NCBI GenBank assembly: GCA_020725175.1
Contig: DYFM01000007.1
Location: 1,054-65,053 of the forward strand
Direction: 5' to 3'
Length of the DNA: 64,000 bases
Source of the DNA: Candidatus Paceibacter sp.
Lineage (GTDB): Bacteria; Patescibacteriota; Patescibacteriia; Magasanikbacterales; UBA922
A program made the position numbers and the translations under genes. This document shows positions 17,275 to 58,250 of this stretch, piece after piece. The notes beneath the pieces were generated by a model. The model was not told the DNA's origin and made no database searches. It saw nothing but the letters and a program-made list of their open reading frames with translations. Within the stretch, counting starts at the first letter, position 1, and each line of letters opens with the position of its first letter.

Positions 17275-20200
17275 ATGGGAGGGTATGTAAAAATCTTAAT
17301 AACTATTTTGTTTTTTTTGTTTCATCCTAGTTTTGTTTTTAGTGTAGAGTTAAAGCCATTTGATTATCCTTTATATCAGAAATTGGTACAAACTGTTCGC
17401 TTAGGAGGTAGTTGGAGCAAGTATTACGGTCACTTAGGTGAAGATTATGGTGCTGATCCAGGTGATACAGTATATGCTGTAGCAGATGGTGTTGTAGAGT
17501 TGGTGAAAAATTGGCCTTTGTGTGATAAATTTGAAAAAGTTAATGGTGAGTTAAAGAAAGTTGATAGTGCAAGAGGTTGGGGAGGTGTTGTCATCATAAA
17601 ACATGATTTAAAAGGGGAGGGCAATTTTTTTACGAAGGATCTATATCTTCCTAATTCTCCAGTAGAAGAAAATCCGGAGGTTGTTTTTAGTCAATATGGA
17701 CACTTAACAAACTTAACTGTTACGAATGGGCAGGTTGTTAAAAAAGGAGAAAAAATAGGAGAAATTGGAAAAATGTGTAAGTGGATACCACATCTACATA
17801 TTGAAATTAAAGATAAAAATGCTTTAGAGAACGAAATTTTAGACGGAGTTGGTAGTGGTTACTCTGGTAAACATGATCATGCCCCACATAGATACAAAAT
17901 TTTAGCTTTTATAGAAAAAAATTCTTACTTGAGTCTTTCGGATGATCCCCAACAAAAACCTGCTTCAAACAACCTGGCAAGTCCCATCATTCTTTCTCCA
18001 TTTACAAATCCACAATTCCTCTCCAACTTCTGGTCATCAAATAAGGAGACTGCCGTCTTTGCTGAGCAGTCTCCTTTTTTATTGGAAAATGTCATTGAGC
18101 AGATGAAGAAACCGAAACCAGATAATGATGTTCCGACAAAGGATGCTGGTGAGCCGAAGAATAATCTCGAAAAACCAAAAGAAGTCGTCGAGAACGGCAC
18201 ATATACCGCTACGCTGGTTGGTTCGCCAAAAGAAGTTCAGGTACTAAAAGGGACGAAGACGGTAGAATTGAAGCTCGAAGCAAAAAATAGCGGAACTGTA
18301 GCTTGGAAAAAGAAGGATATTTCGGTGAATGTCGTCGGAGGAAAAGCAAAAAATAGCAAGTACGTCACTGAAAGTTGGTTTACCAAATTGCGACCGGCTC
18401 TCCTTGATCAGGAACAGGTTTCTCCTGGTAGTATAGGAACATTTACGTTTGTCATTGCAATTCCTGAAGATGAAACTTCCATTACCTTACCGTTCATGAT
18501 TGTACGACAAGACGTACAAAACAATTTTTATCAAGTGGGAAATCAGCAATACATATTTCAAATTAAACAAGTGGACAGTTTACCCCTCGTTCAAAATGAA
18601 GAACCAGCTGGAACCGGTGGTCCAACAGATATCGACGATCCAAACTTTTTTGCCGACATATACAACGAAACAAAACAGGTAGTCAAAAAAACAGTTAAGA
18701 AAACTACGGACACAGTGAAAGACATCACCTATGATACTATTGATGTTATTAAAAACATACCACAATACTTTTCCGGTGGTGGGGGATCTTCTATAAATGA
18801 GGGTCAATACGAAGATGATAATTCTGTTGATACAGGAAATGAAAACAATAATGACATTGATATCGATGCTAACATTGAAAGTCCAACCAGCACTCCTAAA
18901 GAAGATGAACAGGTAGAAGAAACCGAAGACGAGCAAGTAGAAGAGCAAATTTCCATTCTTGAACCGGATCACACGCCGTACATTACCAACGCAAATCCAA
19001 TCATAATAGCAGGTGAACGAACGAGTGGGGTGGCAAGTGTTTCGTTGGTGGGAATGGACGCTGAGGTGGAATATCCTACAAGTACCGGTTGGCTTTTGCG
19101 GTTCAATCTATCGGAAGGTGAGCAGATGATTCAGGTGCAGGGGAAAAATGCCGCTGGAGCAGTGGTTGCGACTACAAGCGTTGGGTATGTATTTGACGTT
19201 ACGCCACCAGATACTCCTGGTGTAACAATTACCCAAACCGGAACAGATCCGACGTATGTTTCGGTGTCGTGGATTTCTTCGGATACGTTGAGTGGAATAA
19301 TGTCGTATGACGTAGAGCGAAAGTTGATGGGGAACGAAGCAAATGAGTGGGAACGTGTGCTTACAGATACGGCGGAAACAGAATATAATTTTGAAGCGTA
19401 TCTTGGTGATATATATGCGATTCGAGTTCGCGCACGGGATCGGGCGTACAATATTTCGGAGTGGAGTGGTGGAGAAGAAGGGGAGACGTATTATGTTGAT
19501 TATACAAAAGAACTAGTGATCAATGAAGTAAACTGGATGGGGACGATGAATAAGGCAACCGGTGGATGTCGAGATCATGAGTGGATTGAACTCTACAACC
19601 CAACAGAAAATCCGATCGACTTGACCGGTTGGACAGTGACGATTGAAAACAAATCCGGACAGATGAATACGCTTACACCGACCGGTTCTGTTTCTCCGCG
19701 GTCATATTACCTTTTGGCTCGAAAAGCATCAAGCCGTTCAGCTGTGATAGACCTTCCGATTGATCATGAATACCAGAATATTGTTTTGCCAAATGATGGC
19801 GCACGGTTAACGTTACGGAATAGCGTGGGTGAAATAGTCGACGAAGTGAATTTTGTTGACAAATGGCCGGCAGGTACACAAACTGGTGGACCAAGTAAAA
19901 ATTTCTATCGTTCCATGGAACGGGTGAGTTCGTATTTGCCGGGAAGTTTGACTGACAATTGGCGGACGAATCAACATATTCCGGTTCTTGGGAGAACAAA
20001 TAATTGTGGTGAATTATTTGGGTCACCGCGCCAACCAAACAACGGACACTGGTTGTTGCGTGCACCGGACTTTTATTATGCTGATGTGTTTGATGCTTCC
20101 GGTACGTTAACACTTTCAAACCGTTTCAGTCCATATGTATTGGACATTGGAACAATAATTCCGGCTGGAAAAACATTGGTGCTCGAGCCGGGGGTAGTGG

Positions 20201-21639
20201 TGCTTGGGAAGGGTAAAGAGAGTTATCTCGAAGTTTCAGGAACGCTGATGGTCAATGGAACAGCAGAGGCACCGGTTATCTTTACCTCAAGCCGAGATAG
20301 GGTAAACGCCGGATCGGTATACTGGGCAAACATCGGCGAACCGACAGCTGGAGATTGGTCGCGGATTCAAGTGGTAAAGGGTGGTATGGCAACAGTTAAT
20401 AACGCAAAATTTTATTACGGTGGGTATCCAGACTCAAAAACATTGACTGTTTTCAATAATCTCGAAGCAGCCAATGTCATTCGAAATATTGACAGTACGC
20501 TTACAATTACCAATAGTGTATTTTCAAACACCTATCTCCCAGTGACAGACCAATCTTATGGAGCAGTGGTTTGGACGGAAAGTACTCCGGGAAAAACAGC
20601 TGAAACACATATTACCGGCTCCACATTCATCAATGGACGGTATGGGTATAAACAAAAAGGAACAGGGGTGGTGAGTAGTATTAAGAATTCTTCATTTCAA
20701 CAGTTTGTAGGACCGGAAGGACCGATTGTATTGTGGAATGCCTGGAGTTTGTTGGGTCAAAACATACTGCAAAACAACAGGAGTAATGCAATTTCTTTGC
20801 GGAATATTTCTTTTGTATCAAGTACGACATTGACCGCTGAGCACCCGTACGTAGTTGACGGATTAACTGTGCAGCCGGGAGTAACAGTAACCGTTGATCC
20901 GGGTACGGAACTCAAGATGACCACCAACAGCGGTATTATCGTTGATGGAACATTTGAGGTTGGTGGGGTAGGTGGACAGCCGGTTATCATTCACGGATTG
21001 AATGGTGCTGCTTGGAATAGAATTGTCTTTAACAATTCTACATCTCGGATACAAAATACAACTATCTCCGGTGGAAATCATGGGGCACTCACATCACAAA
21101 AAGGCGGAATGATTTTATCTAATAATTCCGAACTTACGTTTGAAGACGTATCATTTTCTACCAGTAAGATGAGTGGAAATCTCATTGAAGGATATGGGTC
21201 AACTATTGCGGTTCGTGATAGTGTCCTTCGTTTTGATGAACTGCAAACCGATCCGAGCCACAAAACAGCTGGTATATATGTTGAAGGTGGAATGGTGACA
21301 GTGGAAAATACAACCTTTCAAAACATGGTGTATGGGGTGATGGCCAAGCTCGGGGCGGTGGTATCGTTTTTACGCATGGGTATTGAACATTTTATCAACA
21401 CCATTGCTAGTTGGTGGCCGCTTGAACTGTTTACCTTTGAACCAGAACCGGTGGTGGAAGAAGTGGTGGAAGAGTTACCAGAGCCGGTAGAAGTGCTTGA
21501 AGTAAATAAGGAATTGATTGAAGAAACGCCTGTGATTGTTGAAGAGATAGCTGAAGAAGTGGTGGTACCGGAAGAGAATGAATCGTTAGATGAGAATGAT
21601 ACAGGGGAGGAGGTTTTTAAAATTAGTGAAGGTATATAG
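17275..21639 (+). CDS. Large secreted protein: M23 peptidase + Ig-like/FN3 + lamin-tail domain + beta-helix repeats
   Basis: Signal peptide; HLGED (HxxxD) and HLH; RVRARDRAYNISEWS FN3; LVINEVNWMG..EWIELYN LTD; acidic tail. Confidence 0.85.
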   Translation: MGGYVKILITILFFLFHPSFVFSVELKPFDYPLYQKLVQTVRLGGSWSKYYGHLGEDYGADPGDTVYAVADGVVELVKNWPLCDKFEKVNGELKKVDSARGWGGVVIIKHDLKGEGNFFTKDLYLPNSPVEENPEVVFSQYGHLTNLTVTNGQVVKKGEKIGEIGKMCKWIPHLHIEIKDKNALENEILDGVGSGYSGKHDHAPHRYKILAFIEKNSYLSLSDDPQQKPASNNLASPIILSPFTNPQFLSNFWSSNKETAVFAEQSPFLLENVIEQMKKPKPDNDVPTKDAGEPKNNLEKPKEVVENGTYTATLVGSPKEVQVLKGTKTVELKLEAKNSGTVAWKKKDISVNVVGGKAKNSKYVTESWFTKLRPALLDQEQVSPGSIGTFTFVIAIPEDETSITLPFMIVRQDVQNNFYQVGNQQYIFQIKQVDSLPLVQNEEPAGTGGPTDIDDPNFFADIYNETKQVVKKTVKKTTDTVKDITYDTIDVIKNIPQYFSGGGGSSINEGQYEDDNSVDTGNENNNDIDIDANIESPTSTPKEDEQVEETEDEQVEEQISILEPDHTPYITNANPIIIAGERTSGVASVSLVGMDAEVEYPTSTGWLLRFNLSEGEQMIQVQGKNAAGAVVATTSVGYVFDVTPPDTPGVTITQTGTDPTYVSVSWISSDTLSGIMSYDVERKLMGNEANEWERVLTDTAETEYNFEAYLGDIYAIRVRARDRAYNISEWSGGEEGETYYVDYTKELVINEVNWMGTMNKATGGCRDHEWIELYNPTENPIDLTGWTVTIENKSGQMNTLTPTGSVSPRSYYLLARKASSRSAVIDLPIDHEYQNIVLPNDGARLTLRNSVGEIVDEVNFVDKWPAGTQTGGPSKNFYRSMERVSSYLPGSLTDNWRTNQHIPVLGRTNNCGELFGSPRQPNNGHWLLRAPDFYYADVFDASGTLTLSNRFSPYVLDIGTIIPAGKTLVLEPGVVVLGKGKESYLEVSGTLMVNGTAEAPVIFTSSRDRVNAGSVYWANIGEPTAGDWSRIQVVKGGMATVNNAKFYYGGYPDSKTLTVFNNLEAANVIRNIDSTLTITNSVFSNTYLPVTDQSYGAVVWTESTPGKTAETHITGSTFINGRYGYKQKGTGVVSSIKNSSFQQFVGPEGPIVLWNAWSLLGQNILQNNRSNAISLRNISFVSSTTLTAEHPYVVDGLTVQPGVTVTVDPGTELKMTTNSGIIVDGTFEVGGVGGQPVIIHGLNGAAWNRIVFNNSTSRIQNTTISGGNHGALTSQKGGMILSNNSELTFEDVSFSTSKMSGNLIEGYGSTIAVRDSVLRFDELQTDPSHKTAGIYVEGGMVTVENTTFQNMVYGVMAKLGAVVSFLRMGIEHFINTIASWWPLELFTFEPEPVVEEVVEELPEPVEVLEVNKELIEETPVIVEEIAEEVVVPEENESLDENDTGEEVFKISEGI

Positions 21640-22101
21640 ACCTTCGGATGAAACGGATTTAACCGATTAAAGCTGATTTTTTATGCTGAAACATGAAGCG
21701 CTAACAAATGAAATAATTCGTTGTTATTATGATGTGTACAATGAGCTGGGGTTTGGATTTTTGGAAAAAGTATATGAGAATGCCTATGTTATTCGTTTGC
21801 AAGAAAAAGGAATACATGGAAAACGTCAGGTTCCAATAAAAGTTTTCTATCATGAGCACGATGTAGGGTTATACTATGCTGATATTGTAGTAGAAGACGT
21901 GATTATTATTGAGATGAAAGCGGCTGAAAATTTATGTTTAGAACATGAGTTACAATTAAAAAATTATCTTCGTGCAACAGATAAAGAAATAGGATTCTTG
22001 TTTAACTTTGGTATCAAACCGGAATTTCGACGTCAGTATTTCGAAAACCAATACAAAAGATCAGTTCAAACTAGTTAAATCCGTTTTATCCGAAGATCTA
22101 T
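21636..22101. mobile_element. Putative inverted-repeat-bounded element carrying a GxxExxY gene
   Basis: ~47 bp arms at 21636-21682 and 22055-22101; outer 28 nt match 26/28; internal 9-bp NNNNCGGAT periodicity. Confidence 0.65.
21683..22078 (+). CDS. GxxExxY protein (PD-(D/E)XK-like, PDDEXK_3 family)
   Basis: GFLEKVY signature, YADIVVE..IIEMKA, QLKNYLRAT..G.LFNFG. Confidence 0.93.
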   Translation: MLKHEALTNEIIRCYYDVYNELGFGFLEKVYENAYVIRLQEKGIHGKRQVPIKVFYHEHDVGLYYADIVVEDVIIIEMKAAENLCLEHELQLKNYLRATDKEIGFLFNFGIKPEFRRQYFENQYKRSVQTS

Positions 22102-22164: not shown

Positions 22165-24331
22165 ATGCTCGATCTTCTCAAACACCACTTTGGCTACGAT
22201 ACCTTCCGCCCCATGCAGGAAGATATTATCAAGACAGTCCTGAACAAACAGGATTGTTTGGTTTTAATGCCGACCGGTGGAGGGAAATCGCTCTGTTATC
22301 AGCTTCCGGCACTAACGCTTGGCGGTATCACACTAGTCGTTTCTCCGCTTATCGCTCTTATGAAGGATCAGGTAGACGCACTGAGGACAAACGGCATAGC
22401 AGCGGCATATATCAATAGTAGTTTGTCATATGAAGAACACCGTCAGATTCAGGAGCAGGTAAAAAATAACCAGCTCAGCATTCTTTATATTGCTCCAGAA
22501 CGATTTGCGATTCCTTCTTTCCAACAGTGGTTGAAACATTTACCGATTCAACTCATTGCCATTGATGAGGCCCATTGTATCTCGGAATGGGGACATGATT
22601 TTCGCCCGGACTATCGAAATTTAAAAGTATTACGCTCGGAATTTCCCACTGTTCCGGTGATTGCTCTCACTGCTACAGCTACGAAACAAGTGCGTGAGGA
22701 TATAATAAATCAGCTATCTTTGCATGACGGAAAAATTTTTACCAGTGGCTTCAATCGACCAAACCTATCGTACATTGTTGAACCGAAAGGAGAAACGTTT
22801 TCTCGGCTCTGTTATTGGTTGAATAGATATAAAGGAGAGCCAACTATTATTTATGCCTTTTCTCGAAAAAACACCGAAGAGTTGGCGGCTGATCTGAATC
22901 GGGAAGGGTTTAATGCGCTGGCATATCATGCTGGTCTTGATCCTGAGACCAGACGGTATACCCAAGAACAATTTGTGCGGGACAAAGTTTCTATTATTGT
23001 CGCGACCATTGCTTTTGGTATGGGAATTGATAAGCCGGACGTGCGGTTGGTCATTCATGCTGATCTCCCAAAGTCAGTGGAAGGGTATTATCAAGAAACC
23101 GGACGTGCCGGACGTGATGGGTTGCCGAGTGACTGTGTTCTTTTTTACTCTCCGGGTGATATCCGTAAACATCGCTATTTTATTCAGCAAATCGAAGATG
23201 ATGCCGAGCGGCAGCGTGCCTCAGAAAAATTGTCTGACATTGTGACGTACTGTGAGCGGGGAGCCTGTCGAAGAACGTTTTTACTGGAATACTTTGGTGA
23301 TCAGTATCATGCCGATGAGTGTGGTAATTGTGATGCTTGTTTAACTCCGAAAGAAACATTTGACGCGACTGAAATAGCCCAAAAAATTATCTCAGCGATT
23401 CTAAAAAACCGGAGAAAAATATGGGGGTAGCTACATTGTTGAGGTGTTAAAAGGTTCTCGTATAAAAAGTGTACGTGAGCGAGGGCATCAAGATTTATCC
23501 GTATTTGGAATTGTCGGTCGAGAATATTCCAAGGAAGATTTGAAAGTACTTATTCGACAAATTGAACAAGCTGGATTAATCTTGAAACAAGATGGAGAAT
23601 ATCCTACATTGTACTTAACTCCGCAGGGGAGAGAATGGTTGATGCGACGTGATTCTTTAGAATTGGTCCGCCCGGCGAAAAGAAACGCTTCGACTGCTTC
23701 CGAACATGCTGAGCCGGTTGACGTTGATCATACTCTCTTTGAACGGTTACGCGATTTGCGTAAACAACTGGCTGATGAAGCTGGTGTTCCGCCGTTTGTA
23801 ATTTTTGGAAATCAGTCACTTATGGAAATGGCAACTTATTTTCCTACTGATCTCGATCAGTTTTCCAAGATTACTGGGGTAGGAGATCAAAAGTTGGTGC
23901 AGTTTGGTGAATCGTTTACTTCACATATTAAAACATATTGCATTGAAACCGGTAAACAGGCAAAGCCAATTCCTCGTCGAATAAAAACATCCACTGAACG
24001 GCGAACCATCAAAACCGATTCGACGTACCAGATTACTAAAAGTCTTATTGAACAAGGAAGAACTATTGGAGAGGTCGCCAAAGAACGACGAATGGCAGAA
24101 TCAACCGTTATGTCACATATTGAAAAACTGTTGCGTGCCGGAGAAACTGTATCGTTGAATCATATTGAGTTTAGGGCTGACCGCTTTCAAGTTATCAAAC
24201 AGGCATTTCAGCGAGCGGGAGACAGCAAACTCACACCGGTTAAGGAACTGCTCGGAGATGAATACTCTTATGACGAGTTGCGGTTAGCACGATTACTGAT
24301 AATTTCACATTCGAGTTTAGCTCATAGGTAA
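22165..24331 (+). CDS. recQ: DNA helicase RecQ, split by one extra A in an A-run near 23403-23408
   Basis: MPTGGGKSLCYQ, DEAHCISEWGHDFRP, QETGRAGRDG, Zn Cys, RQC, HRDC; removing one A gives continuous ILKTGEKYGGSYIVEVLKGS. Confidence 0.92.
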
Positions 24332-26361: not shown

Positions 26362-26450
26362 GTTGGCAAGTCGGCAAGTTAACAAGTTGGTAAGTTAACA
26401 AGTTGGTAAGTTAACAAGTTGGTAAGTTAATAAGTTGGTCAGTTGGTAGG
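26356..26450. repeat. 8-bp periodic repeat arm (AAGTTAAC/AAGTTGGT); inverted partner at 27849-27883
   Basis: Tandem 8-mers directly visible; outer 16 nt match the partner 15/16 in reverse complement. Confidence 0.85.
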
Positions 26451-27885: not shown

Positions 27886-28248
27886 GTGAACAACCTTACT
27901 CCCGAAGAACAATTCATCATCGAACAAAAAGGCACTGAGCCGCCATTTTCCGGTGAATATGATAATCATTTTGCGGATGGTATGTATGTTTGTCGTAAAT
28001 GCAATACGCCACTGTATGACTCAAAAAGTAAATTTCATTCCGGTTGTGGCTGGCCGAGTTTTGATGAGGAAGTTCCGGGAGCGGTAAAGCGAGAGGTAGA
28101 TGCGGATGGAATTCGAACTGAGATTATCTGTGCCAATTGCGGAGGGCATCTTGGGCATGTATTTATTGGTGAGCAGTTTACCGAAAAAAATACTCGACAT
28201 TGTGTGAATTCATTGTCGATGAAGTTTATTCCGAGAAGTACCATTTAA
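27886..28248 (+). CDS. msrB: Methionine-R-sulfoxide reductase
   Basis: GTEPPF, GCGWPSF, HLGHVF, RHCVNS. Confidence 0.96.
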   Translation: MNNLTPEEQFIIEQKGTEPPFSGEYDNHFADGMYVCRKCNTPLYDSKSKFHSGCGWPSFDEEVPGAVKREVDADGIRTEIICANCGGHLGHVFIGEQFTEKNTRHCVNSLSMKFIPRSTI

Positions 28249-28345
28249 TAGATCATGTTTGCCCGCTTTGAGTGAGGATTTATCGGATGGAACGGATCTA
28301 TACGGATCCGTACACATCCGTTTTATCTGTTTGATCTGTGGTCCA
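28249..28345. repeat. ~97 bp gene-less copy of the GxxExxY-flank hairpin element (family A)
   Basis: TAGATC start, CGGAT 9-mers, ATCCG mirror arm, degenerate nested TTTGCCCGCTTTGAGTGAG. Confidence 0.8.
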
Positions 28346-28359
28346 TTTACTTATAATAT

Positions 28360-36800: not shown

Positions 36801-36808
36801 TATTGTTT

Positions 36809-36899
36809 TCATCAGCGGAAGAAACGGAAAACAAGCGGAGTAAAACGAAAAATATTTTCGTTACTTTCTGCTTGGTTTTCGTTTCCTCCGTTGACTCAA
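36809..36899. repeat. Periodic hairpin element family B (CGGAA-type)
   Basis: TCAGCGGAAGAAACGGAAAACAAGCGGAG...mirror arm ending TCCGTTGA. Confidence 0.75.
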
Positions 36900-36908
36900 A
36901 AAAATACC

Positions 36909-44943: not shown

Positions 44944-44958
44944 ATGGGTAAAATAAAA

Positions 44959-45055
44959 TAGACCACGCCTGCCCGCCTTGGGAGGGGATTAAACGGATTG
45001 AACGAATCAAGACGGATCCGTTAGAATCCGTTTTATTCGTCTAATCCGAAGTCTA
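44959..45055. repeat. ~97 bp gene-less family A element with nested CCTGCCCGCCTTGGGAGGG
   Basis: TAGACC...GTCTA ends; CGGAT/ATCCG 9-mers. Confidence 0.85.
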
Positions 45056-45078
45056 TTTAAATTCTAAGGACTCGAAAA

Positions 45079-49104: not shown

Positions 49105-49248
49105 TATAATCCAAATCTACACTTCTGAATCTACAAACATGTATCCGAATCTTCGAATTAACGAATCAACGAATCAACGAATGTTTACGGCATTTGTAAC
49201 ATTCGGAGATTTGTAGATTCGGATACAAATTCGTAAATTAGGATGATA
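49105..49248. repeat. Periodic hairpin element family C
   Basis: ATCCGAATCTTCGAAT..ACGAAT repeats with mirror ATTCGGAGATTTGTAGATTCGGAT. Confidence 0.8.
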
Positions 49249-52256: not shown

Positions 52257-52370
52257 GTATCATCCGAATTTACGAAGGTATTCGAGTCTACAAATCTACG
52301 AATATAACCAATACGCTATAGAATCTTCAGCCAATTCGTATTATTCGAAGATTTGTAGATTCGGATGTGC
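52257..52370. repeat. Periodic hairpin element family C, inverted relative to the 49105 copy
   Basis: GTATCATCCGAATTTACGAA is the reverse complement (19/20) of 49230-49249. Confidence 0.8.
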
Positions 52371-53490: not shown

Positions 53491-53590
53491 ATAGACCGCG
53501 GATTTAACGGATGAAACGAATTTTTACTGATCTGTTATTATCCGTTCAATCGGTTTAATCCCCACCCAAGGCGGGCAGGCGTGTTCCTAT
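53491..53590. repeat. ~98 bp gene-less family A element, inverted relative to the 44959 copy
   Basis: ATAGACCGCGGATTTAACGGATGAAACG...AATCCCCACCCAAGGCGGGCAGGCGTGTTCCTAT. Confidence 0.85.
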
Positions 53591-57467: not shown

Positions 57468-58169
57468 TCACTTCTGTGGTGTTTTTTTATATATATCCCT
57501 CAATTTTTCAACATCACCACTCCACCTCTCCCCATCAAACCACTCCAACCCAACAAACTGCAACTTATACACATCACTCGGTCGTTGAAATGAACCAAGG
57601 TAAATGTATTTTTTACTATGCTCTTTTGCATAGATAATCGCCCGAAGCATCATGCCCATACCAAAATTGGAAACATTGACAGAGAGATCGTAGAATGGGT
57701 AACTGTAATGAATGAGTTCGTTTGTTTCGAGTGTTATACAATAACCAACAACACAACTCCCAATTTCCAATTTCAAATTTCCAATTTCATTATGTTCATT
57801 CACCGCATACACAAATAACCGATTAAAGTTACCCTCTTCCGAAGTCAACAATTCCCGAACTTTATTCGCACTAAACGTCCCATCGCCAAATTTCTCAGTA
57901 TAAAAATCTTTCGCCATTTTTCCGATTGACCAGTGATAATTATCATAAGGAAGGTTGGCTAGAGAAAATTGTATTTCATCGGTTTTGCGTAAAACTCTGC
58001 GATTTTCACTCGATAAATTAAATTTTGAGAGATCAATTCGCAAACTTCTCGTCTGGTTCATCAATCCTTTTTTGATACGAGTAAAAACATAGCCGTTGTG
58101 GTAGGCATGGTTAATTGTGTTGTCGGAAAAGTCGGAGATGGTTTGTTCGTTCCAGGATAAATAGCTCAT
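57468..58169 (-). CDS. Arginyl/aminoacyl-tRNA-protein transferase-like GNAT protein
   Basis: RSLRIDL..F.LSSENRRVLRK, YPFYD, G.GMML.AI..AK...KYIYLG, YKLQF. Confidence 0.7.
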   Translation of the reverse strand: MSYLSWNEQTISDFSDNTINHAYHNGYVFTRIKKGLMNQTRSLRIDLSKFNLSSENRRVLRKTDEIQFSLANLPYDNYHWSIGKMAKDFYTEKFGDGTFSANKVRELLTSEEGNFNRLFVYAVNEHNEIGNLKLEIGSCVVGYCITLETNELIHYSYPFYDLSVNVSNFGMGMMLRAIIYAKEHSKKYIYLGSFQRPSDVYKLQFVGLEWFDGERWSGDVEKLRDIYKKTPQK

Positions 58170-58250
58170 AAGCAGAGTAAGCAGGTTAGGCAGAGTAAGC
58201 ACGTGTTTCATTGCTTATTCTGCTTACTCTGCTTACAACCCTACTCTGCC
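58169..58250. repeat. 9-bp periodic hairpin (TAAGCAGAG/CTCTGCTTA) filling the mraY-GNAT spacer
   Basis: Four units, a short loop, then mirrored units. Confidence 0.8.

Follow-up and report, generated by a model that had tools for sequence, protein, structure and literature searches.

A GxxExxY gene framed by periodic inverted arms, and its gene-less hairpins: a candidate mobile hairpin element in a Patescibacteriota genome

In a 64,000-nt stretch of the Candidatus Paceibacter sp. assembly GCA_020725175.1 (contig DYFM01000007.1, positions 1,054 to 65,053; hereafter the window), a small gene of the GxxExxY family lies between two inverted arms made of 9-bp units, and the initial annotation suggested that its product may be the mobilising or homing enzyme of a non-transposase element. 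The question raised by this locus is whether gene and arms spread together as one unit and, if so, whether it is the nuclease that mobilises them. We find that gene and arms together form a discrete cassette inserted between genes, at stop-to-start junctions, and that the hairpin family is real and widespread in our sample; indeed, the arms themselves, their co-variation with the protein, the abundance of hairpins where the gene is present and the existence of filled and empty junctions together identify an insertion unit, of which the gene-less hairpins are likely the non-autonomous offspring. That GxxExxY is the mobilising nuclease specific to these arms, in a hairpin element that spreads slowly and whose insertion is completed by host repair, is a proposal built on sequence comparisons which we hold to be evenly poised.

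The two arms of the focal cassette, of 47 bp each, are complementary at 38 of 47 positions, the outer 28 accounting for 26 of these. The left arm runs from the stop codon of the upstream open reading frame (17275-21639, encoding 1454 aa) up to the GxxExxY start codon, and the right arm overlaps the last codons and the stop of the gene, with recQ lying 63 nt further on; these are the arms and boundaries described in the initial annotation, with which our coordinates agree. The same annotation had noted no evident target-site duplication, and in agreement none longer than 2 nt is visible in the elements of the focal genome, nor was any seen in the Anaerolineales junctions considered below; the insertion ends are not fixed to the base because the empty alleles are too diverged. 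Homologues of recQ in three of five relatives have no arms upstream, the upstream gene of the focal site not being found beside them. The recQ gene is split by a frameshift at window position 23403, likely an assembly error since contigs of two runs are one base shorter there.

Arms of this kind are a regular attribute of GxxExxY genes. Full flanks were available for 100 of 118 loci, and arms are present at 73 of these 100, whereas shifted windows show them in 3 of 329 cases and cross-locus pairs in 113 of 988; in a wider set they are found at 92 of 132 homologues, including 13 of 26 distant copies. The left arm begins at a median of 2 nt from the upstream stop codon (within 25 nt in 54 of 72 cases), and the gene is co-oriented with its upstream neighbour at 105 of 113 loci. 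Arm similarity follows protein identity (rho 0.50, 0 of 999 permutations; rho 0.52 among pairs of like GC content), a statistic in which kin are not independent and of which physical linkage alone would give part or even much, so that the unlinked gene-less copies provide the stronger test. When the nearest protein of another genome is compared with distant paralogues of the same genome, the former has the more similar arms in 20 of 25 cases. The association of the arms with the gene across genomes, and the co-variation of their unit with the protein, had both been anticipated in the initial annotation and are borne out. Some loci have other layouts: 'inside-out' junctions, with a right arm followed by a left arm as if each neighbouring gene were arm-bracketed (L203, L212, L214-L216), and a complete hairpin on either side of the gene, as known for RAYT genes (L077, L083, L084, L085, L089, L093, L136).

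A search of the focal genome (1.24 Mb in 33 contigs, G000 in our genome set) with the arm profile returned 91 matches, against 2, 0 and 0 in three shuffles. These resolve into 56 candidate elements, two of which were dropped as false, leaving two gene-bearing copies and 52 gene-less copies or remnants; complete hairpins of a single geometry, 80-82 nt long with four units per arm, are represented by 31 copies. Three end types can be distinguished, and 23 of the 24 hairpins typed at both ends have one type on both sides; types A and B are those found at the termini of the two close GxxExxY genes here. In all, the focal genome has six GxxExxY matches, every one with inverted periodic arms; the four distant ones have other units and some of them, among the matches listed, have gene-less hairpins of their own. 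Co-directional genes flank 44 of the 53 elements with both neighbours, usually within ~20 nt of the stop and start codon, the excess of such junctions over background being weak (p 0.02 by length and 0.11 by count, with crude gene calls). The genes beside the hairpins are housekeeping ones, such as sufB-sufS-sufU, gatC-gatA and rpiB-rpe, as named from their Pfam families.

The family is thus larger than initially perceived, when 3 of the 52 gene-less copies or remnants and one of the six GxxExxY matches had been noticed. The three gene-less copies then reported in the window are real, but they measure 99-100 nt rather than ~97-98 and their ends are not all of one type (Table 1); each is a standard 80-82-nt hairpin with a GC-rich insert of ~18-19 nt in one arm. 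This GC-rich piece (~16-19 nt, itself a small hairpin) occurs at the same arm point in these three copies (window 28248-28346, 44958-45056 and 53491-53590) and at C3:11897 and C6:63770 of the focal genome, with seven copies genome-wide at no more than two mismatches, and could be a nested tiny element or the mark of one hairpin subfamily. Further periodic hairpins with other unit types lie at window positions ~36801-36906, 49128-49239, 52280-52366 and 58169-58235, and a tandem 8-mer-like array at 26376-26441, 32 nt of which are skipped in related-strain contigs. Regarding the GxxExxY copies at C30:8951-9271 and C31:9811-10065, one continues in frame from a DHH-family (RecJ-like) gene, to which its translated left arm joins it, and the other appears frameshifted.

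Table 1. Positions in the window of the focal cassette and of the gene-less hairpins with a GC-rich insert.
Feature	Position	Strand	Remarks
Left arm	21636..21682	.	Terminal cap and four 9-10-bp units; the cap defines end-type A
GxxExxY gene	21683..22078	+	131 aa; predicted minimal PD-(D/E)XK nuclease
Right arm	22055..22101	.	Inverted copy of the left arm
Gene-less hairpin	28248..28346	.	99 nt; msrB/msrA junction; begins on the msrB stop codon; GC-rich insert in left arm
Gene-less hairpin	44958..45056	.	99 nt; junction of a NUDIX gene with serine hydroxymethyltransferase (both -); one arm with GC-rich insert
Gene-less hairpin	~53491..53590	.	~100 nt; flanked by two unnamed genes of the same direction (-); one arm with GC-rich insert

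The abundance of hairpins of this arm type in other genomes goes along with the presence of the gene. A protein query of 41 relatives gave a GxxExxY match in eight, 'no gene' meaning here none with that query, which misses distant copies (that of G013 was found by hidden Markov model (HMM) only). The arm pattern occurs 60, 58, 21 and 9 times in the four genomes with a GxxExxY copy of at least 58% identity, 5 times in one genome with distant copies, and 0-2 times in the other 36 of the 41; among 120 genomes of the phylum, 17 have distant copies only and none a close copy, and no genome of the 120 exceeds three matches of a stricter pattern. This scarcity of the arm type where the gene is not found also accords with what had been proposed at the outset, as does the finding of filled, empty and internally deleted orthologous junctions, which we describe in the following.

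At the gatC-gatA junction of 29 genomes of the family, 23 gaps measure 28 nt or less, five hold periodic elements of differing types and one an unrelated hairpin, all five filled junctions being in genomes with a GxxExxY gene. At leuS-comEC (19 syntenic of 30), four genomes have the cassette, three another insert and 12 a short gap. Across 14 genomes of an Anaerolineales genus, a single junction, flanked by genes that we take from their translations to be iscS and mnmA, holds the cassette in four (in one of them visible from a single side), a deleted cassette retaining both arms and 21 codons of GxxExxY in one, and other arm types in five; three are empty and one is unresolved. The filled genomes do not form one clade on LeuS or iscS, and their monophyly is not rejected on ComEC or mnmA (approximately unbiased test, p-AU 4e-155 and 0.037 for the upstream genes, 0.31 and 0.17 for the downstream ones); the LeuS sequences split into two deep lineages, and their tree may differ from that of the species. 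In the congeners G023 and G047 (~70% gene identity), one hairpin is common to both at the same junction and three other junctions differ, the hairpins being swapped or shared with no clean empty site. The msrB and msrA genes are neighbours in two of 15 relatives, 38 nt apart in one and 181 nt in the other. Among the matches listed, related-strain contigs over two regions, with patchy cover, gave no strain-level empty allele, and no joint in them skips an element.

Sequence conservation within the hairpins is concentrated in the units. Core positions match in 787 of 806 cells and linkers are near random. In gene-less hairpins the inner linkers pair below chance (27 of 155 against 49 +/- 5.6) and the outer positions above it, and the innermost mismatch recurs in 19 hairpins of other loci (7 of 57 against 16.9); in gene-bearing cassettes the linkers of both arms match (77 of 116 against 46.7). 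Mismatches of the G-U and A-C classes on the transcribed strand are equal, 71 against 79, with 13 elements leaning each way, so that the hairpin mismatches give no sign of RNA pairing being favoured. Taken together, these patterns indicate a constraint on spaced sequence motifs and a looped stem.

As to the protein, it scores well above the curated cut-offs of PF13366 (129 bits against 22) and TIGR04256 (119.6 against 35), and the Pfam and NCBIfam searches of the cassette protein returned GxxExxY only, with no recognised transposase domain. Residues E32, D67, E77-x-K79 and Q91 are invariant in 106 GxxExxY sequences, and Y95 nearly so. The structure model (predicted local distance difference test, pLDDT, 92.7) matches restriction-like, Cas4/RecB-like and Hjc folds with Z 5-8, none standing out; restriction-like nucleases come on top, the best match having Z 8.0 and a root-mean-square deviation of 3.6 over 100 aligned residues, and no solved structure related by sequence to GxxExxY was found. 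According to the model, the focal protein has the PD-(D/E)XK core fold with its predicted active site intact. The four proteins of the leuS site retain 63-78% identity although their fourfold sites are saturated, which evidences purifying selection. The longer homologues either have two domains in tandem or are fused to unrelated proteins, and three of the latter have arm-like low-complexity linkers; none of 76 longer forms fuses GxxExxY to IVP, another family that we discuss below, and an IVP gene lies within three of the loci scanned. A 266-aa family (P0133, P0138, P0150) has one GxxExxY domain and a second, degenerate copy. No phage or plasmid vehicle emerges, as GxxExxY was found in 0 of 50,697 phages, 4 of 72,556 plasmids and 2 viral contigs, and no defence-system profile matched better than E 0.001. 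In the available part of one survey, PDDEXK_3 is listed as a family of unknown function with multiple transfers (PMC3424549), and the accessible portion of another report mentions a GxxExxY gene beside a reverse transcriptase (10.1101/2021.01.26.428298).

In the mechanism that we propose, GxxExxY would recognise hairpins by their repeat units and probably cut them to start their spread. Loss of the gene would join the arms into the 80-82-nt hairpin, which would then be copied as a whole unit, because its geometry is fixed and both ends are of one type. Several GxxExxY molecules, probably as dimers, may attach to the spaced units once these are extruded in a cruciform or folded in a single strand, and cleave close to the stem base. 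The PD-(D/E)XK fold hydrolyses and, to our knowledge, does not carry out strand transfer alone, for which reason host repair rather than the nuclease would join the piece into the new site. Copies would persist at gene junctions because their ends provide the stop and start codons or leave the existing ones intact, and because the stem would keep the insert folded away from the rest of the mRNA, the gene, which has no promoter of its own, probably being read from the host operon.

A number of observations weigh against this interpretation. Within the close clade, arm and protein co-vary only weakly (rho 0.12, 28 of 999), besides the linkage effect already mentioned; end-type C has no matching gene in the focal assembly; G012 has five pattern matches and only distant GxxExxY genes found; and the close copy of G007 has an arm unit unlike the 21 pattern matches of that genome. 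Judging from the trees, repeated independent insertion at one site, as opposed to ancestral filling, is not proven. The nearest gene-less copies agree at only 49-55 of 64 inner bases, which denotes no recent burst, and in related-strain contigs from one other study, among the matches listed, four hairpins are bridged and filled and the focal left junction is crossed and likewise filled; spread in the focal genome is old or slow. Finally, the same arm design accompanies another family: the focal genome has nine IVP four-helix-bundle genes (on C25, C27, C2, C4, C6, C22, C29, C8 and C1), six of which score at least 15 for arms with two more recognised by eye, and arms are present at 15 of 18 scored IVP loci in five relatives. 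In G029 (99% complete), where GxxExxY was not found by HMM, 14 periodic hairpins occur in 240 kb, six of which resemble by eye the IVP arms of that genome, which shows that a genome can be rich in periodic hairpins although no nuclease gene is detected in it. The idea of GxxExxY as the mobilising enzyme has accordingly fared unevenly since the initial annotation: most GxxExxY genes do have arms, this arm type is scarce where the gene is not found and filled and empty junctions exist, but IVP has the same design, with its own hairpins in a genome where GxxExxY was not found, and no recent movement was detected.

Other data on IVP complete this scenario. Most IVP genes of the focal genome have their own periodic arms and gene-less hairpin families (among the matches listed), and arms occur at 10 of 12 IVP loci in four relatives without GxxExxY by HMM. 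Within the parts of the relatives that were scanned, the hairpin density of G029 is close to that of the focal genome (85 in 1.24 Mb), G030 has three in 160 kb, and three genomes in which neither family was found have none in 400 kb. IVP is presumably akin to Avd, a pentamer that binds nucleic acids. The two protein families may each be dedicated to their own arms, or a shared mover may be served by both.

The latter option, in which GxxExxY and IVP are cargo or specificity adaptors and one host enzyme or RAYT-type HUH transposase moves all periodic hairpins, we consider unlikely, if deserving of attention. A single arm design in two unrelated folds would be explained by it, as would the abundance of hairpins in the IVP-only G029, their absence from the 400 kb where neither gene was found, and the presence of IVP in all eight genomes with a GxxExxY match. 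There are also four Y1_Tnp matches in the focal genome, and REP-type (repetitive extragenic palindromic) hairpins use the same junctions and apparently nest in periodic hairpins; however, the Y1_Tnp genes are flanked by a different, non-periodic repeat or by none. Moreover, the focal arm type tracks the close GxxExxY clade and not IVP, ten genomes with IVP and no GxxExxY match by protein query have 0-2 pattern matches, invariant catalytic residues are not needed by a passive cargo, and G029 may have lost its GxxExxY gene. Movement at the RNA level appears improbable: here the arms would pair in the transcript as in rRNA intervening sequences, RNase III or GxxExxY would cut the stem, and spread would proceed via reverse transcription. 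The RNA of the focal cassette is indeed predicted to fold arm to arm (z -4.07), the stop-codon position and co-orientation suit such a unit, PD-(D/E)XK RNases are among the fold neighbours and IVP genes are known in rRNA insertions, yet the equal mismatch classes are at odds with it, reverse transcriptase matches do not follow the gene, two of the eight gene-bearing genomes having none and many without hairpins having one, and window positions 21000-54500 have no Rfam match.

It is quite improbable that the hairpins are by now REP-like mRNA control elements kept by the host at operon junctions, or part of an addiction module, with their movement largely stopped, a reading that can nevertheless coexist with mobilisation by GxxExxY. 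The unit cores are conserved though no two copies are young siblings, one hairpin stands at the same junction in the two congeners, and the inner linkers are mismatched beyond chance, all of which would fit with host maintenance. On the other hand, most relatives have no element at the same junctions, where unrelated hairpins replace one another, the first spread would be left unexplained, and the defence-system profiles gave no match within the threshold above. To the idea that the arms formed on the spot, through slippage and strand switching within AT-rich spacers and with no link to the gene, we give practically no credence: the units are short and of low complexity and one tandem array of the window varies in length between strains, but the 80-82-nt geometry is fixed in 31 copies with pure end types, shuffled controls are near zero, relatives of like composition have no arms, and the co-variation is unchanged among pairs of like GC. 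Chance and slippage as sources of the arms are rejected on these shuffle, geometry and composition controls.

Mobilisation by GxxExxY, which we retain as the best explanation, can be set beside known systems. REPIN-RAYT systems (REP doublets forming hairpins, with REP-associated tyrosine transposases) comprise, in the available part of the source, extragenic two-arm hairpins and a cognate enzyme gene that bears matching repeats on its flanks, with several such pairings in one genome and a long co-evolution (Bertels and Rainey 2011, PMC3116915). Inverted extragenic doublets that form hairpins and share their repeats with a cognate gene are common to both systems; the differences reside in the gene, a PD-(D/E)XK one here (PF13366) against a Y1/HUH transposase, with the Y1_Tnp genes of the focal genome lacking these arms, in the arms, which are arrays of 9-bp direct units and not short REP palindromes, and in the layout, as GxxExxY is multi-copy and lies in the hairpin loop at most loci, with copies that hug stop and start codons. 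Insertion sequences with miniature inverted-repeat elements (Correia, ERIC, RUP) have autonomous and internally deleted forms with the same inverted ends, as is the case here, and the repeated end sites recall multi-site transposon ends; the cassette, however, has no DDE, HUH, serine or tyrosine recombinase domain, and its short form is almost all arm. Free-standing homing endonucleases include PD-(D/E)XK types, and a small nuclease gene that recurs at one junction in scattered relatives, other alleles being empty, resembles them, but dozens of unrelated sites, gene-less copies and arms co-varying with the protein do not, and no cut site was identified in the empty alleles of the patchily filled junctions. 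The cyanobacterial STRR (short tandemly repeated repetitive) heptamers are likewise short periodic intergenic repeats, often inverted, for which we know of no cognate gene. With rRNA intervening sequences the cassette has in common that a long stem encloses a small gene in its loop, and the IVP genes of the focal genome, a family found in rRNA insertions of this radiation according to the accessible part of 10.1101/2024.02.27.582315, share the periodic arms; the window copies, however, lie between protein genes and not in rRNA, and no strand bias for RNA pairing was found in the hairpins. The literature searched, which excluded subscription papers and supplements, gave no description of arms around GxxExxY genes.

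These results provide GxxExxY with a concrete candidate substrate. More broadly, we advance tentatively, with doubts slightly prevailing, that the hairpin cassettes may represent a new class of mobile DNA, composed of a 130-residue PD-(D/E)XK nuclease and a sister four-helix-bundle system, each with its own periodic arm code, which sends gene-bearing and gene-less copies to stop-to-start junctions without a known transposase in many phyla. If this is true, two large families of unknown function, GxxExxY and IVP, would share one role, much of what lies between the genes in some small Patescibacteria genomes would be explained, and the rRNA intervening-sequence genes would find their place in a broader class of elements; a small nuclease whose repeat specificity can be changed could also serve as a tool.

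Some minor observations concern the neighbouring repeat systems and the gene starts. Two Y1_Tnp (RAYT-like) genes of the focal genome, at C6:66423 and C29:103669, are flanked by REP-type hairpins, a separate repeat system, and REP-type sequences are apparently nested in the loops of periodic hairpins of G029 (L319-L330) and G030 (L332, L336). A Shine-Dalgarno-like purine run is found just 3' of the start codon of comEC, GxxExxY and IVP genes at many loci (among them L184, L169, L172 and L191), and the start of the GxxExxY gene of G044 resembles the usual comEC start.

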